Assembly (NCBI RefSeq): GCF_000021865.1
Contig: NC_014034.1
Span: 2,160,001 to 2,192,000, forward strand
DNA: 32,000 nt
DNA from: Rhodobacter capsulatus SB 1003
GTDB lineage: Bacteria; Pseudomonadota; Alphaproteobacteria; Rhodobacterales; Rhodobacteraceae
Direction of reading: 5' to 3'
In this document: positions 1 to 6,078 of the stretch, in pieces
How positions within the stretch are numbered: the stretch's first letter is position 1
How the letters are laid out: each line of letters starts with the position of its first letter
The notes under the pieces: model-generated
What the model was told of the DNA's origin: nothing
Seen by the model: only the letters and a program-made list of their open reading frames with translations
Databases searched by the model: none
Translations under genes and position numbers: made by a program

Positions 1-2267
1 TCGTGGCGCATTATGCATCGAAAGAGCATTTCTCGACACTTTATTCCGAGATCGTCAAAGCGGTGAAGGATGCGCCCGAAGTCTCCTCCGGGCTGCCGCG
101 GCTCAAGCTATTGCTGAAGCGGGCAGATGGTGTGCGCGGTTATGTGCATGGCCTGAGAGACACACGCAAACATGCATTTGCCACCAAGCTGCCCCCGCCC
201 CCCGCCCCTCGAGAACTTGACGATCCCGCGACGAAGGCGCGTTACATCGCCCTGTTGCGGCTTTACGACGGGCCATTCCGCGCCTACGCTTCTGGCATTA
301 CCGGAACGGCGCTTGCCGGACCTGCCGCGCGCGCCAAGGAAGCGGCAACCGCGCTGGCGCAAAGCGTGAACGTCACGAAGGCGTATTCCGACGTAATGGA
401 AGGGCGCACGAGCCGGTTGCGCCCCCCGAACGATGGCGAAACGCTGCGCGAATATCTCAGCGCCTTGACCGGCGAAACCGCGACCGAGTTCCGGGTGCAG
501 ATCGGGTACGAGTCCGACTCGGAAAACGCCCGCAAACAGGCGGAATTCATCGAGAACTATCGCCGCGACATGCTTGCCTTCATGTTCGAGGATTACATCA
601 GGGCCAAGGGCTTTGACTGGATATTGAAGATCGAGCCGGGCGCGACGGCGATGACCCGCGCGCCCGTCCTGCCCGAGCCGATCGATACGCGGGGCCAATA
701 CGAGCATTGGCAAGCGGCGCTCTATCTGGTGATGCATTTCGTTCCGGCCAGCGATGTCTCGAACCTGCTGCACCAGTTGCGCAAATGGGAGGCGCTTCAG
801 GGCAAATATGAACTGGTCCAGGACGGTGACGCCACGGATCAGGCGGACGCGAGGCGCGAGGCGCTTGATCTCGTCAAGCGCTTCCGCGATGTGCTGGTGT
901 TGTTCCTCAAGACCGGCGAGGCCCGGTTCGAGGGCCGCGCAGCGCCTTTCGATCTGAAGCCGTTTCGGGCGCTCTTTGCCAACCCGGCCACCTTTGACCG
1001 GCTCTTCATGGCCACACCCACAACCGCGCGCCCTGCCGAAGATGACCCCGAGGGGGACGGTGCGTCCGAGCCGGAACTGCGTGTCGCGCGCACCTTGCGC
1101 GGTTTGCGCCAGATCGCGCGCTACAACCATATGGCGGTTCTGAGCGATCTTTTCGCAAAGCACAAAGTGCGGGACGAAGAGGTGGCCCGCTTGGCCGAGA
1201 TCGAAGACGAGACGCAGGAAAAGTCACAGATCGTGGCAGCCCAGGAACTGCGCACCGACCTGCACGACAAGGTGATGAAGTGTCACCCAAAAACGATTTC
1301 CCCCGAGGAGCGGCAAAGTTACGCTGCGGCGATCAAGACCATCGAGGAACACCGGTTTCTGGTCGGACGGGTCTATCTGGGTGATCATCTGCGCCTGCAC
1401 CGGTTGATGATGGACGTGATCGGACGCCTGATCGACTATGCCGGGGCTTATGAACGTGACACCGGAACTTTCCTCATAAACGCGAGCAAGCAGTTGGGAG
1501 CAGGCGCCGATTGGGCTGTCACCATCGCAGGGGCAGCCAATACCGACGCGCGCACCCAAACCCGCAAAGACCTTGCGCATTTCAATGTGCTTGACCGCGC
1601 GGATGGCACGCCAGACCTGACCGCTCTGGTCAACCGGGCGCGCGAGATGATGGCCTATGACCGCAAGCGCAAGAATGCGGTGCCGCGCTCGATCCTCGAT
1701 ATGCTGGCACGACTTGGGCTGACGCTGAAATGGCAGATGAAAGATCACCTTCTGCAAGACGCGACGATCACTCAGGCCGCCATCAAGCACCTCGACAAGG
1801 TCAGGCTGACAGTTGGCGGGCCGGCGGCGGTGACAGAGGCCCGTTTCAGCCAAGACTACCTCCAGATGGTGGCGGCCGTCTTCAATGGCAGCGTCCAGAA
1901 TCCAAAGCCACGCCGCCGGGATGACGGGGACGCATGGCACAAGCCCCCCAAACCCGCGACCGCGCAAAGCCAGCCAGATCAAAAACCGCCCAACAAGGCA
2001 CCCTCTGCGGGCTCCCGTCTTCCGCCCCCGCAGGTGGGGGAAGTCTACGAGGGCGTGGTGGTTAAGGTGATCGACACCGGATCTTTGGGGTTTCTTGCTG
2101 TCGAGGGCGTTGCGGGGAACATTGGCCTGCACATTTCCAGGCTGAGAAGGATCCGCGAAGATGCCATCATCGTCGGGCGGCGCTATCGGTTCCGGGTGGA
2201 AATCTATGTCCCGCCGAAAAGTAACACGTCGAAGCTGAATGCCGCCGATCTGGTGCGGATCGACTGA
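1..2267 (+). CDS. cas13a: Cas13a (C2c2)-like type VI-A CRISPR effector, 5' end cut by the window edge; C-terminal S1/OB-like extension
   Basis: The frame is open from nt 1; the leading M in the ORF track is only the first GTG. Two HEPN R-x4-H motifs are present: LRDTRKHAF (153-179; R 156-158, H 171-173) and TRKDLAHFNVL (1560-1592; R 1563-1565, H 1578-1580). YAGAYERD and AYDRKRKNAV blocks flank the second motif, as I recall for Cas13a HEPN2. A same-strand CRISPR array starts 170 nt downstream. Codons are visibly more A/T-ending than in the core genes. Confidence 0.8.
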   Translation, partial: VAHYASKEHFSTLYSEIVKAVKDAPEVSSGLPRLKLLLKRADGVRGYVHGLRDTRKHAFATKLPPPPAPRELDDPATKARYIALLRLYDGPFRAYASGITGTALAGPAARAKEAATALAQSVNVTKAYSDVMEGRTSRLRPPNDGETLREYLSALTGETATEFRVQIGYESDSENARKQAEFIENYRRDMLAFMFEDYIRAKGFDWILKIEPGATAMTRAPVLPEPIDTRGQYEHWQAALYLVMHFVPASDVSNLLHQLRKWEALQGKYELVQDGDATDQADARREALDLVKRFRDVLVLFLKTGEARFEGRAAPFDLKPFRALFANPATFDRLFMATPTTARPAEDDPEGDGASEPELRVARTLRGLRQIARYNHMAVLSDLFAKHKVRDEEVARLAEIEDETQEKSQIVAAQELRTDLHDKVMKCHPKTISPEERQSYAAAIKTIEEHRFLVGRVYLGDHLRLHRLMMDVIGRLIDYAGAYERDTGTFLINASKQLGAGADWAVTIAGAANTDARTQTRKDLAHFNVLDRADGTPDLTALVNRAREMMAYDRKRKNAVPRSILDMLARLGLTLKWQMKDHLLQDATITQAAIKHLDKVRLTVGGPAAVTEARFSQDYLQMVAAVFNGSVQNPKPRRRDDGDAWHKPPKPATAQSQPDQKPPNKAPSAGSRLPPPQVGEVYEGVVVKVIDTGSLGFLAVEGVAGNIGLHISRLRRIREDAIIVGRRYRFRVEIYVPPKSNTSKLNAADLVRID

Positions 2268-2436
2268 AAATGAGGGTTCAGGTTCAGAACATGTCCAGCG
2301 CCATGAAATATATGGATATAATTCGAATTTTGCGTCCGGATACCGTGCGGATGGGCGAGAAAATTCAGGCATTTGTCGTCACCCTCCGAAACCTCGCCGC
2401 GGATCTCGATTGATTTCAGGGCGCTCCAGTGGTAAA
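2268..2436 (+). promoter_or_regulatory. putative CRISPR leader
   Basis: This is the most AT-rich stretch of the window and lies between the cas13a stop and the first repeat. It contains a TATAAT hexamer at 2317-2322, but I found no convincing -35. The degenerate repeat is at the far end of the array, which agrees with a leader on this side. Confidence 0.4.
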
Positions 2437-2610
2437 GGAGCACATCACCGCCAAAATGACGGCGGACTGAACCTAAGACGGGGACAGTCGACCAGAAACC
2501 CCAAGGAGCACATCACCGCCAAAATGACGGCGGACTGAACCTGCCGGGTCTCATTGAGGATAAGGGCAATCGTGGAGCACATCACCGCCAACATGACGGC
2601 TGGGGATGGC
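2437..2610 (+). CRISPR. CRISPR array with three 37-nt repeats and two spacers (31 and 32 nt); terminal repeat degenerate
   Basis: R1 (2437-2473) and R2 (2505-2541) are both GGAGCACATCACCGCCAAAATGACGGCGGACTGAACC. R3 (2574-2610) is GGAGCACATCACCGCCAACATGACGGCTGGGGATGGC; its first 27 nt carry 1 mismatch and its last 10 nt have diverged. The repeat has an internal CCGCC/GGCGG stem and an ...ACTGAACC 3' end, as in Cas13a 5'-handle repeats. Spacer 1 (2474-2504) is TAAGACGGGGACAGTCGACCAGAAACCCCAA. Spacer 2 (2542-2573) is TGCCGGGTCTCATTGAGGATAAGGGCAATCGT. Confidence 0.85.
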
Positions 2611-2723
2611 GACTTGCGGCAATCAAGACCTCCGCTCCGATGCCATCGGTCGCAGCCCCTGCCTTTGCTTGTCAGCCCGCAAGCCCCGCCTTAGGCTGAG
2701 GCCGAGCATTTCAAGGAGGCCGC

Positions 2724-4274
2724 ATGCTGTCGCCGCAGATTGCATCCCACCCGGTAGCCGAGCACAGCCTGTGCGTTTTTTACGAACTCGACGGAATTGA
2801 TCCTGCTGGCTGGACCGGCCCCCGCTTCGGCAATCTGACCCGAAACCCTGGACAAGGTATCCCCGCCGATCAGAAAGCCGCGCTGCAGGGGCGTTATGCC
2901 GAAGATGCGCTTTGGGAAGCCGACGAAACCCTTTCGGCGGGTGACGATTTTCATGCGCATCTGCAGGAATTGCTGTCGGGCGCGCGCCCCGACTTGGTGA
3001 GGTTCCATCGCCTGACCGAGAGGGGCCACCGCTTTCTCTCGACGGCCTGCCTTTATGAGAAGACAACACCGCCCGCAGACCGGATCGCCAAGCGGCTGCG
3101 ACTGAGCCTGACGTCAGCCGCCAAAGAACGCATTGCTGCGGCGGGTGTCGTGCCGGGCGAACTGGGCCTTGAGGTCGAAAGCCTGTCGCTTGCCCTTTTC
3201 ATGACCGCGCAGGGGCTGGCTTTGTGCCGCTTCGTCGTCGACCGCGAGGATGGCGCCCCACTTTCCGCGGTCGAACTGCTCGAGGCCACGGTTGCGCTTT
3301 CCCGCCTGAACGAGGTGCGATGGATCGACAAGAAGGCCAAAACCCCGATCGAAGCCCCAGCGTTTTCAATGGCGGCCTTGATCGGGCAGATGGTGTTTGG
3401 CAGCCGGTCACAAGCCGAGGTGTCGCGTCGGCTGTCGTCGCATGCGATGGTGCGCTTCGACGCCATCTTGCCGATAACGGACCGCGACCGGTACGCGCTG
3501 ATGCTGGCGCGGCATTACACGACGGATTACCAGCTTTCGCCCGATATCGGGCGCGTCGAATGGGTCAGGGATTTCGAGACAGTTCGACACGCCATTGCGC
3601 TGGAGGGGGCCGCAACGGTGATCGGCCCGACCGAAGGGGCGCCGACCCTGACGGAATTTCTGAGAAATTTCCGGACATCGACCTTCGATCGCCATTATCT
3701 GCCGATCGCGATCCTGGCGCTGCACGAGCGTGCCTTCCTCGTTGCCCGAACCGCGGCCTCAATCATGTCCGCGGCGGAGATGCTGGATGCGCAGAAATCC
3801 CTGCGTCGGTTGGCCGAGTTGCGCGAAGCGGCGCTGGTGCTCCGTCTGTGCTACCGGTTCTCGGAACAGAGCCATATTTCGATGCACAATGCGGTCAACC
3901 TTGCCTGGCGCAAGGTGTTGCGCCTCGACGAGATGCTGGCCGAACTCGACGACAGCATCCGCGATATCGCCGATCATCTGGAGCGGATCCACCGGCGTGC
4001 GCAGGAGCGGAAATTTGCCGGCGTGGCGATCATGGGCGGCGCCATCATCGCCGGCTTCTCGACCTTCTCGATCGTGAAGGATCTGTATGATCTGTTCAAG
4101 GCATCGCAGACTTACGGGTGGATCGGGGTGTGCGTCGGGGGCATCGCGCTGATCGGGGTGGCGGCCTTTGCCCATCGGAAAAGCGCCGTGTTTGGCGCCC
4201 TCGATCAGGACTGCTCCAAGAATTACACCGTCCATGCGATGTTGGAAAAGATGACGCGCCGCAGCAAGGACTGA
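2724..4274 (+). CDS. hypothetical CRISPR-adjacent membrane protein (516 aa) with a C-terminal two-TM hairpin, CorA-like topology only
   Basis: ATG at 2724 is preceded by AAGGAGG (2713-2719). A long, helix-rich soluble part is followed by TM1 FAGVAIMGGAIIAGFSTFSIV (4014-4076), TM2 WIGVCVGGIALIGVAAFAH (4119-4175) and a basic tail. There is no GMN motif and I recognise no family. Confidence 0.75.
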   Translation: MLSPQIASHPVAEHSLCVFYELDGIDPAGWTGPRFGNLTRNPGQGIPADQKAALQGRYAEDALWEADETLSAGDDFHAHLQELLSGARPDLVRFHRLTERGHRFLSTACLYEKTTPPADRIAKRLRLSLTSAAKERIAAAGVVPGELGLEVESLSLALFMTAQGLALCRFVVDREDGAPLSAVELLEATVALSRLNEVRWIDKKAKTPIEAPAFSMAALIGQMVFGSRSQAEVSRRLSSHAMVRFDAILPITDRDRYALMLARHYTTDYQLSPDIGRVEWVRDFETVRHAIALEGAATVIGPTEGAPTLTEFLRNFRTSTFDRHYLPIAILALHERAFLVARTAASIMSAAEMLDAQKSLRRLAELREAALVLRLCYRFSEQSHISMHNAVNLAWRKVLRLDEMLAELDDSIRDIADHLERIHRRAQERKFAGVAIMGGAIIAGFSTFSIVKDLYDLFKASQTYGWIGVCVGGIALIGVAAFAHRKSAVFGALDQDCSKNYTVHAMLEKMTRRSKD

Positions 4275-4486: not shown

Positions 4487-5695
4487 TCACCCCGCGCTTG
4501 GCCTCAGCTGCACCACCTGCACCGACTCGCCGGTCACATAGTCCGCCCATCGCTGCATGAGCGCGGCGCGCTGGTCGAGGTAGTCGGATCTGGCGTAGGC
4601 GCGGCGCACCTTGTTGCCGATGACGTGGCCAAGCGCCGCCTCTGCCGCCAGATCGTGCGAGCCGTCCAGCGTATCCTGCACCCAGGTTCGGAATGTCGTG
4701 CGGAAACCGTGCGGCCTGCCCGCCTCGCCGATCTTGTTCACCGCCTTCAGCAGCGCATTCGGGCTGATCGGTTCCCCGCGATCGCCCGGGAACAGAAGGC
4801 CGGTCTCGGGATCGTTCGAGAGCCGTCGCGCCTCGGCCACGATGGCAAGCGCCTGGGACGAAAGCGGGACGCGGAAATCCGTGGCCGCTTTCAGCCGCCC
4901 CTTCACGCGCTCTTTCGGCACGATCCACAGGCTGCCGTCGATTTCGTTGAAACGCGCGCCCCGGGCCGCATCCCCCCGGACCGCGGTCAGCAGCAACAGG
5001 CGAAGGCACATCAGCCCGGAGGTGTCCCCGGCCAGCCGCGTGAACAGCACCGGGGCATCCTGCCAGCGCGTCGCGGCGATATGCTCGGGCTCGATGTGCA
5101 GATCCCCCAGCAGCTCGCGCGCCGCCGCCAGCGTGTCGGGGTCGACGGCATAACCGATGCGCTTGCCCTTCTTGAAGCAGAGGTTGAGCCGCGAATAGGC
5201 CTTTTCGGCGACCGTCGGCTTCATGCGCCAGATCGGCTGCAGCACGCGCACGAAATCGGCCGTCCGGAGCGATGACGCCGGGCGCGCGCCGATCTTCGGC
5301 AGCACATGGACGCGCAGCGGTGACATCCAGCGCCCCGCCTCCCCCTCGCCCTTGAGCGTGTGCTTGATCGCGCCGAAGACGGTGTCCACAAGATCCGACA
5401 GCGACGGGTCCTCACGCGTTGCCGCGGCCTCCCTCTCGCGCGCCCGCTCGGAGATCGGGTCCCGGCCGGAGGCGAGCACCGCGGCCCAGCGATCCCGCTC
5501 GCGGCGCGCCTGGGCGAGGGTCACGGCATCGAGAGAGCCCAGCCCCATGTCGCGGCGCCGCCCCGCGATCGTGTAACGGTAAAGCCATTTTCCGCCATCC
5601 TCGGTGCGGTCGAGGTATAACCCGGCGCCGTCGCCATATCGCCCCGGTGCCGCGGCCCGGATCTTGACCGCCGTCAGCTTGTCCCTTGCCCCCAT
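4487..5695 (-). CDS. int: tyrosine recombinase/integrase, P4-type
   Basis: The N-terminal arm-type domain reads KLTAVKIRAAAPGRYGDGAGLYLDRTEDGGKWLYRY. Catalytic signatures are LLTAVRGDAARGARF, HGFRTTFRTW and LGHVIGNKVRRAYARSDY. The ATG at 5695 is preferred; the open frame extends to a TTG at 5764. Confidence 0.85.
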   Translation of the reverse strand: MGARDKLTAVKIRAAAPGRYGDGAGLYLDRTEDGGKWLYRYTIAGRRRDMGLGSLDAVTLAQARRERDRWAAVLASGRDPISERAREREAAATREDPSLSDLVDTVFGAIKHTLKGEGEAGRWMSPLRVHVLPKIGARPASSLRTADFVRVLQPIWRMKPTVAEKAYSRLNLCFKKGKRIGYAVDPDTLAAARELLGDLHIEPEHIAATRWQDAPVLFTRLAGDTSGLMCLRLLLLTAVRGDAARGARFNEIDGSLWIVPKERVKGRLKAATDFRVPLSSQALAIVAEARRLSNDPETGLLFPGDRGEPISPNALLKAVNKIGEAGRPHGFRTTFRTWVQDTLDGSHDLAAEAALGHVIGNKVRRAYARSDYLDQRAALMQRWADYVTGESVQVVQLRPSAG

Positions 5696-5951
5696 ATCAG
5701 CCCCACACTTGGCCCCACATTGTCGATGCGGTGCTGGGGTATCACCCGCAACACCTTGAGACAATTACATCTTTGCGGCGTTGAGATTTCCCGGGGCGCA
5801 GAGTCAACCTGAGACGGCATGCAACACGGCACTGGTGCAGACCACCCGCACCATCTGACCTTTCTCTGCCTGCCCGCGCTGCCGTCTCGGGGCGTCTGTC
5901 TGGGCGAATCTTTTCGATCTTTCTGCCGCGCCGGGACCGAAAACGGCCCGG

Positions 5952-5987: not shown

Positions 5988-6078
5988 CACCTTGCCAGCA
6001 AGGTCGCCAGCCCCTAGAAGGACGGCTGAAATTTGCCTGAGCGCGTCTTTTCGGCGCGCCCGAACCAGAGGAAACCCC

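Follow-up and report, generated by a model that had tools for sequence, protein, structure and literature searches.

A candidate CorA-like membrane component beside the Cas13a locus of Rhodobacter capsulatus, from a family shared with STAND and type III immune systems

A Cas13a system is commonly pictured as one effector with an array. To our knowledge, membrane partners are known only for Cas13b (Csx27, Csx28 and CorA) and for type III systems (CorA); a pore model of Csx28 was reportedly presented by VanderWal et al. in 2023. Here we describe a gene for a 516-amino acid (aa) protein (ADE85750.1) that lies directly behind the small CRISPR array of the Cas13a locus in Rhodobacter capsulatus SB 1003, within a stretch of 32,000 nucleotides (nt) (contig NC_014034.1, positions 2,160,001 to 2,192,000; hereafter the window, to which coordinates given without a locus name refer). 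The protein is probably an overlooked membrane component of the well-studied RNA-targeting Cas13a system. It belongs to a divergent branch of the "CRISPR-associated CorA-like" proteins, and the novelty lies in a CRISPR accessory of this kind being linked to type VI-A and common to STAND systems. Our best explanation, to which we give an even chance, is a modular membrane effector of CorA architecture that acts at this locus downstream of target-activated Cas13a and reinforces arrest or abortive infection.

The R. capsulatus Cas13a locus was studied in vivo by Kretz et al. 2024 (PMC11089165), who described three promoters, one of them for the small downstream array. The promoters of the locus are induced by stationary phase, oxygen, peroxides and sodium dodecyl sulfate/ethylenediaminetetraacetic acid, and growth of the native host is arrested by Cas13a together with a protospacer (PMC11089165). 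The 516-aa gene is not mentioned in that paper, whose strains retained it; inducible cas13a strains and protospacer plasmids exist for R. capsulatus from the same work. The alphaproteobacterial Cas13a clade 1 and the VI-A/RT1 systems were defined by Toro et al. 2019 (PMC6753606), at a time when nr held 62 Cas13a homologues, a mark of how rare this effector is. CorA was linked to Cas13b/RT-Cas1 (VI-B1) systems by Molina-Sanchez et al. 2024 (PMC11662929), where the CorA of the P. muris VI-B1/RT system transported Zn2+, Ni2+ and Cd2+ in liposomes and gave a higher phage output, meaning less interference; Csx27 and Csx28 are cited there as Cas13b accessories. Neither PMC6753606 nor PMC11662929 reports a membrane partner for VI-A. 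The CorA of type III systems binds S-adenosylmethionine-AMP (SAM-AMP), its N-terminal domain is reported to have a "unique fold", and both the transmembrane (TM) domain and NrN are needed for immunity (Chi et al. 2023, PMC10600005). Our literature search found nothing on CorA-like proteins in connection with type VI-A or STAND NTPases and no publication that mentions the 516-aa gene, but it was incomplete and is therefore no proof of absence.

The link with Cas13a is drawn from genomic context, which we compared across about 30 distinct loci of the family. Four of them adjoin VI-A systems: the R. capsulatus locus, where every R. capsulatus genome examined has the gene in its VI-A setting, and loci L028, L012 and L018. 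L028 encodes a protein 60% identical to the 516-aa protein, and its array, which shares the gene's strand, has a 37-nt VI-A-type repeat in at least 15 copies; its order of array, degenerate terminal repeat, 118 nt and ATG is the layout of R. capsulatus, although the repeat sequence differs. L012 (27% identity) has cas13a, RT-cas1, cas2 and the gene, all on one strand. L018 (35-37% identity), in an alphaproteobacterial metagenome-assembled genome (MAG), shows cas13a, an array, RT-cas1, cas2, a further array and the gene in convergent orientation. Across the VI-A loci the gene directly adjoins the array or cas2, with no STAND partner or remnant between them, and because these loci contain neither a STAND nor a Cas10 partner, Cas13a is the only candidate partner there. 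The small open reading frames (ORFs) adjoining the L012 and L018 copies gave no Pfam match.

The VI-A-linked members do not form a single clade in a neighbour-joining tree but fall on three separate branches, so that the association is recurrent and appears in independent lineages. The R. capsulatus protein and that of L028 group with the STAND-linked member of L005, the L018 protein stands alone, and the L012 protein lies near type III-linked members (the tree entry L014 is a wrongly extracted ORF and is disregarded). Since Cas13a is rare, the branches are three and the layout is kept at 60% identity, four VI-A loci out of about 30 would be far above what defence-island clustering leads one to expect. 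When the comparison was run from Cas13a outwards, three of the Cas13a relatives with sufficient flanking sequence had the gene and one, L067, did not; the sequence of L066, the closest Cas13a relative, ends 340 nt past cas13a, inside the array. A metagenome scan, the source of the L028 array, yielded no additional cas13a gene, most of its contigs being too short to show one.

The initial annotation, made from the letters of the window, had proposed a membrane accessory of the Cas13a locus. The recurrence of VI-A linkage in L028, L012 and L018 besides R. capsulatus speaks for this part of the proposal, whereas exclusivity did not survive: homologues are mostly unlinked to cas13a, the outcome that the annotation itself had named as adverse, and Cas13a is neither the sole nor the predominant partner of the family. 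About 17 of the roughly 30 loci adjoin STAND NTPases and two (L025 and L027) adjoin type III genes. The main STAND form is an operon in which the family member is the first gene, followed by a protein of 173 aa and a NACHT NTPase of about 1490 aa, whose P-loop region matches PADLOC Avs2 models. This Avs2-like operon was seen in Rhodospirillales and Reyranellaceae MAGs (L001-L004, L014-L016, L030-L032 and L040). Because PADLOC 2023 has no system model for the CorA-like/173-aa/NACHT set, the three genes form a candidate new STAND defence system. Further members stand beside NPHP3-type and WD40 STANDs, and in L005 a member 59% identical to the 516-aa protein occurs with a TPR-STAND and an AAA ATPase.

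Type III neighbourhoods show the member directly upstream of Cas10 (palm2) and RAMP genes in L025 and beside a Card1-like nuclease in L027. The former, in a Sedimenticola MAG, is an unusual type III-like arrangement, in which a TrwB/HerA-like ATPase, the member, a 584-aa palm2-only Cas10-like protein and large RAMP-fusion proteins span L025 2344-14352. Elsewhere, a trio of a 174-aa protein, the member and a 231-aa protein lies within a TIR, patatin and nSTAND island, and an operon of the member with two proteins, p530 (about 530 aa) and p412 (at least 412 aa), recurs in Burkholderiales and Casimicrobiaceae MAGs (L021-L023, L047, L050-L054); neither p530 nor p412 has a Pfam or PADLOC match. In a Chromatiaceae MAG (L020/L045, 3714-9540) the member follows a 999-aa Tubulin_2 protein and a 1037-aa PBP-like/OmpA protein, with DUF4145 downstream. 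L017 seemingly has no immune neighbour. Taken as a whole, the family looks like a modular membrane component common to several immune sensors and not specific to Cas13a.

Such a distribution raises the possibility, which we hold to be real if doubtful, that the R. capsulatus gene serves defence independently or as an orphan: a membrane toxin that brings about abortive infection on its own, or a leftover STAND effector, would share the island or cargo slot with Cas13a without any crosstalk. Most homologues do occur with STAND NTPases, the closest relative in a different context (that of L005) follows the TPR-STAND and AAA ATPase pair, defence genes cluster, prophage ends gather unrelated cargo, the L018 copy is convergent and disrupted, and the L017 copy lacks an evident immune neighbour. 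Against this stand the rarity of Cas13a, which nevertheless accounts for four of about 30 loci on three branches, the layout and spacing from array to gene, which are kept at 60% protein identity despite a differing repeat, and the position of VI-A copies, always immediately beside the array or cas2 and with no STAND remnant.

ADE85750.1 is a real gene, and the identical 516-aa protein occurs on 137 contigs. Its two C-terminal TM segments and basic tail, already proposed in the initial annotation, were recovered by hydropathy at agreeing coordinates (residues 433-451 and 465-483). Charges of +2 ahead of TM1, 0 in the intervening loop and +3 in the basic tail fit an N-in/C-in orientation. TM2 is strongly hydrophobic in 30 of 30 aligned homologues; TM1 is weaker and rich in Gly and Ala, with nearly invariant G438, L442 and G444. 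A full-length AlphaFold2 (AF2) model of the monomer was built from a 30-sequence alignment (predicted local distance difference test score (pLDDT) 83, predicted TM-score (pTM) 0.78). In this model residues 1-300 are mixed alpha/beta and only residues 311-430 are helical (helices 316-345, 356-376 and 386-398), which corrects the earlier description of about 430 helix-rich soluble residues; a single long helix (401-458) becomes TM1, and helix 464-491 contains TM2. Residues 154-172, also hydrophobic, are modelled as a buried beta-hairpin and not as a TM segment.

These features, seen in the AF2 model and in hydropathy and charge, amount to a CorA-type architecture: a cytoplasmic domain, a stalk helix continuous with TM1, then TM2, in an N-in/C-in pattern. 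The assignment agrees with profile searches. The PADLOC CorA-like profile PDLC01043 matches residues 311-443 (profile positions 271-397 of 457) with an E-value of 4.8e-6, so the statement that no family is recognisable is outdated. PDLC01043 and PDLC01174 match 8 of 10 members from differing genomic contexts, always in the same register, and among 89 diverse members PDLC01043 matches 43 and PDLC01174 matches 15 (best E 2.6e-18). The match covers the C-terminal third only; family-wide it extends over profile positions of about 270-450 of 457, and the N-terminal 270 positions of the profile are unmatched by the 516-aa protein. PADLOC gave no match other than CorA-like for this protein. Foldseek against PDB returned T. 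maritima CorA as six of the seven best matches (probability 0.69-0.92, 255-322 aligned columns, TM-score 0.22-0.28), with ZntB further down the list. The CorA-like call of the initial annotation is thus sustained by both profile and fold. A search of the family profile against PDB sequences gave no match (best E 1.5). Faint fold matches of the N-terminal domain to Bet v1/START and CYTH-like folds had probabilities of at most 0.1 and are not relied on.

The absence of a GMN motif was also confirmed: the GMN (or GxN) signature of CorA channels is missing from the TM1-TM2 loop (residues 452-464, KDLYDLFKASQTY). The loop is unconserved across the family and varies in length from about 14 to 45 aa, and a conserved MHN at 387-389 lies about 45 residues ahead of TM1 and hence is not the equivalent of GMN. 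A missing GMN filter and a variable loop make a Mg2+-selective channel unlikely. Neither Pfam nor NCBIfam matches the 516-aa protein, the CorA models failing even at E<=1, and Pfam CorA (PF01544) matches none of the close members and 1 of the 89 diverse ones (E 1.9e-4). A housekeeping metal-ion transporter of the CorA/ZntB type that neighbours a CRISPR system by chance would agree with CorA and ZntB being the best fold matches. We nevertheless judge it highly improbable, given the failing CorA models of Pfam and NCBIfam, the lack of GMN, the place of the gene in prophage cargo and not in the core genome, family neighbourhoods that are overwhelmingly immune, and the small, patchy family. The latter comprises 34 word-index homologues, all unnamed, with 894 cluster representatives at E<=1e-3 (265 at <=1e-30), and occurs at 15 loci in 185,579 species genomes. 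PHROGs, a phage collection, a plasmid collection and IMG/VR contained no relatives, so that this is not a common phage or plasmid gene, despite its prophage setting.

The same evidence bears on the idea that the protein is a modulator and not an effector, tuning or dampening Cas13a by, for example, moving divalent cations that the HEPN RNase uses or limiting its toxicity, as Csx27 or the VI-B1 CorA would. Its appeal comes from the cation transport and raised phage output of the P. muris VI-B1/RT CorA (PMC11662929), from the CorA-type architecture of the 516-aa protein and from the descent of the R. capsulatus locus from a VI-A/RT1 ancestor, of which an RT-Cas1 remnant is left upstream of cas13a. 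We consider this unlikely, as the periplasmic loop is unconserved, of variable length and devoid of GMN, Pfam CorA fails on every close member and on 88 of the 89 diverse ones, and the family also works with STAND and Cas10 systems, in which the usual role is that of an executioner.

Conservation is strongest on the cytosolic side, and most of the conserved polar residues belong to the N-terminal alpha/beta domain (residues 1-310). R236 does not vary across 123 sequences; conservation of at least 90% holds for D75, R136, E187, W200, Y265, Y269, E294, G295, Y325, H334, S383 and H388. The conserved motifs include LARHYTxDY (ARHYTxDY at 262-269), DFxTVRH and EGAAT, and the stalk carries RFSxxSxxxMHN at residues 378-389 (nt 3855-3890). 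Because the cytoplasmic polar residues are conserved whichever the partner, a common ligand or gating site is favoured over a partner-specific contact. A bolder version, in our opinion quite unlikely, is a ligand-gated CorA-like pore whose conserved cytoplasmic pocket senses a small product of the activated sensor; in type VI-A this would be something released when Cas13a cleaves RNA collaterally, for example short oligonucleotides with a 2',3'-cyclic phosphate. That would make Cas13a a second-messenger generator like Cas10, and the executioner would be interchangeable between CRISPR III/VI and STAND/Avs systems.

The arrangement of the gene behind the array suggests how it may be expressed (Table 1). 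The ATG-initiated, 516-aa ORF on the + strand, its strong Shine-Dalgarno sequence 4 nt ahead of the start codon, the proximity to the last repeat on the same strand (113 nt as measured here), the lack of a terminator in 2611-2723 and the position as the only other cargo gene between effector and integrase, with no further coding between the 516-aa gene and the integrase gene, were all confirmed. CRISPR repeats lie at 2435-2474, 2503-2542 and 2572-2611, the final copy being 70% identical; they closely resemble the VI-A repeats of L066 and have the Cas13a direct-repeat orientation on the + strand, as seen from the repeat 3' end GGCGGACTGAACC. This orientation and the degenerate terminal repeat on the gene side indicate that the array is transcribed towards the 516-aa gene. 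No sigma-70-like promoter was found in a scan of 2612-2723 between array and gene. With no terminator from array to gene and a published array promoter (PMC11089165), read-through and hence co-transcription are probable.

The 112-nt region between array and gene folds ordinarily (z -1.06), and its sequence is unlike that of the L028 counterpart, at a similar length (118 nt in L028); conservation against L028 and folding gave no evidence of a riboswitch or attenuator in it. The sole terminator-like site on the + strand is a hairpin at 2762-2774 (GCACAGCCTGTGC) plus T6 (to 2781) within codons 13-20 of the ORF, and such sites are no more numerous than in shuffled sequence. As an attenuator this site was set aside, its T run being made of conserved V-F-Y codons and the counts lying at shuffle expectation.

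Table 1. Features of the Cas13a locus and of the adjoining membrane protein gene, in window coordinates.
Feature	Position	Strand	Evidence or remark
3' part of cas13a	3..2267	+	NCBIfam NF038188 cas13A_C2c2, E 4e-128; cut by window left end
Cold-shock-like OB extension at Cas13a C-terminus (about 60 residues)	2034..2211	+	aligned with L066 Cas13a C-terminal extension
Mini CRISPR array "array 5-6" of three repeats (the last one degenerate) and two spacers	2435..2611	+	repeat search
Array-to-gene spacer region, 112 nt, Shine-Dalgarno AAGGAGG at 2713-2719	2612..2723	+	site and terminator scans
CorA-like membrane protein gene, 516 aa, ADE85750.1 / D5AUW1_RHOCB "hypothetical protein"	2724..4274	+	ORF, homologues
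N-terminal cytoplasmic alpha/beta domain, residues 1-310	2724..3653	+	AF2 domain model, pLDDT 88, pTM 0.88
Helical stalk, residues 311-432, final helix entering TM1	3654..4019	+	AF2 secondary structure; PADLOC CorA-like match region
TM1, residues 433-451, Gly/Ala-rich, moderately hydrophobic	4020..4076	+	Kyte-Doolittle 1.86
TM2, residues 465-483, strongly hydrophobic, then basic tail and C-terminal amphipathic helix	4116..4172	+	Kyte-Doolittle 2.08
P4-type tyrosine integrase	4487..5764	-	Pfam Arm-DNA-bind_3, Phage_int_M, Phage_integrase; PHROG integrase

We thus propose the following course for the effector role that we prefer. Most likely, transcripts started at the stress-induced promoter of the small array would read through into the gene. 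Its product is an inner-membrane protein in which a cytoplasmic domain of about 300 residues and a stalk lead into TM1, a short loop in the periplasm connects TM1 to TM2, and a basic tail lies in the cytoplasm; it would probably oligomerise into a gated pore or a membrane-perturbing assembly. Differing cytosolic sensors may make use of the family, namely STAND NTPases, type III Cas10 complexes and, at this locus, Cas13a. Established here are the gene, its topology, its place in the family and the recurrent linkage, whereas transcription together with the array, pore formation by an oligomer, the direction of the effect and the coupling signal are inferred. Cas13a activation would be coupled to the membrane protein by some signal; acting downstream of target-activated Cas13a, the protein would then lead to stronger growth arrest and dormancy or to abortive infection.

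Several observations weigh against this proposal. On the side of the family, most members do not stand beside cas13a, and at least one related Cas13a (L067, 31% identity) has no such neighbouring gene. In L018 the gene and the cas operon converge, and a frame-changing insertion of about 290 nt (about 2125-2415) interrupts the gene; in that lineage it is therefore dispensable or was selected against. On the side of structure, the TM region of the AF2 model has low confidence (pLDDT 52-70), the fold likeness to CorA is weak (TM-score 0.2-0.28, E about 5e-3), and the N-terminal domain modelled alone has no significant fold match in PDB (best E 0.08). The locus itself holds no Cas10-like signal maker and no NrN/DHH, DEDD or SAM lyase, as only cas13a, the array and the integrase adjoin the gene; with no signal-making or signal-degrading enzyme accompanying it, no gating signal is evident. 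Cas13a by itself accounts for growth arrest in other species and in vitro. Finally, the only tested Cas13-linked CorA slightly lowered interference (PMC11662929). As to the insertion in L018, either a small mobile element or an error of assembly could account for it.

The VI-A module and the 516-aa gene are cargo at the integrase end of a prophage, inserted next to tig. In full R. capsulatus genomes, genes for tape-measure, tail-fibre, holin and endolysin proteins lie upstream of cas13a (L056 1-6400), and on the other side the integrase is followed by tig at 5992 and then by rplI, rpsR and rpsF of the core genome; it is from these two flanks that the prophage nature of the cargo follows. We did not find a statement of this setting in the literature surveyed. 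No tRNA genes were found in the window, and neither the window nor the R. capsulatus flanks contain cas10 or RAMP genes.

Upstream of cas13a, a 91-aa ORF on the - strand (L056 6944-7219) is what remains of an RT-Cas1 fusion, to whose residues 7-95 it shows 45% identity. The R. capsulatus locus thus descends from a VI-A/RT1 system whose adaptation genes have been lost. The same 91-aa remnant is drawn as "cas1" by Kretz et al. 2024 (PMC11089165). Between it and cas13a lies a second array in the opposite orientation. In the assemblies L059-L065 the small array is shorter by exactly one repeat-spacer unit, missing from the leader end that faces cas13a and corresponding to 2435-2502 here; this one-unit difference between strains fits spacer gain or loss, despite the missing Cas1 and Cas2. 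The spacers at 2473-2504 and 2541-2573 had no match among 50,697 phage records, the best being chance matches of 18-19 nt. A 475-aa truncated copy of the membrane protein in strain L058 is due to an assembly gap of Ns and not to biology.

The cas13a ORF at the left end of the window encodes the C-terminal 754 aa of the 1285-aa RcaCas13a and is 100% identical to R. capsulatus Cas13a P0179. The Cas13a of L066, 46% identical to RcaCas13a, has the same C-terminal OB extension (Pfam CSD, E 5.8e-7), which was not found in the Cas13a of L012, L018 and L067. As a Cas13a feature that would track the membrane gene, the extension is ruled out by its lack in L012 and L018.

A conserved CorA-like membrane protein beside VI-A arrays would change the effector-plus-array picture of these systems, including that of the structurally and physiologically characterised R. 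capsulatus Cas13a, whose published growth arrest was measured in cells carrying the gene (PMC11089165). That one family serves Avs-like STAND, type III and VI-A systems points to an exchangeable membrane executioner across adaptive and innate bacterial immunity. It also raises the question of how an RNase guided by CRISPR RNA would signal to a membrane protein.

Among described systems, the type III-B CorA (B. fragilis CorA, PMC10600005; Shmakov et al. 2018, 10.1101/270033) likewise combines a large N-terminal domain of no known fold with a two-TM CorA-like helical domain. Both proteins belong to CRISPR loci, the PADLOC CorA-like profiles align with our family over its stalk and TM region, and its distant members in L025 and L027 stand beside Cas10/RAMP genes and a Card1-like nuclease. 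However, the locus of the 516-aa gene lacks a Cas10 that could make SAM-AMP as well as any NrN, DEDD or SAM-lyase partner, and the N-terminal domains may be unrelated, since the profile match is confined to the C-terminal third. The SAM-AMP residues of BfrCorA are R152/R153 and D219/D220, whereas the present family has its own conserved set of Arg, His, Asp and Tyr. Most of its members are also partnered with STAND proteins, which is undescribed for type III CorA.

The CorA of VI-B1/RT-Cas1 systems (PMC11662929) is similarly a CorA-type two-TM protein beside a Cas13 effector, and both occur in lineages with present or former RT-Cas1/Cas2 (present in L012 and L018, a remnant in R. capsulatus). 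The partner here is Cas13a in Alphaproteobacteria and there Cas13b in Bacteroidetes; moreover, the VI-B1 proteins were assigned by their authors to a tree of the IPR002523 CorA family and transport divalent cations, while this family fails Pfam CorA and lacks GMN. Csx28 and Csx27 offer a functional analogy alone, as membrane proteins of small operons beside Cas13 that modulate or reinforce the outcome of collateral cleavage; they are far smaller, unrelated in sequence or fold, and without a CorA-like stalk or a large alpha/beta domain.

With canonical CorA and ZntB (T. maritima CorA, PDB 4i0u and 3jch) the 516-aa protein has in common a cytoplasmic domain, the stalk helix running into TM1, TM2 and the basic C-terminus. 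It differs in its length (516 aa against about 350 aa), in the lack of GMN, in the unconserved loop, in escaping the Pfam and NCBIfam models and in having its gene on a mobile element with an immune context. Avs-type STAND NTPases, finally, are absent from the R. capsulatus window, and known Avs usually carry their effector fused at the N-terminus and not as a separate CorA-like membrane protein; in the present family, by contrast, most members open a three-gene operon with an Avs2-like NTPase.

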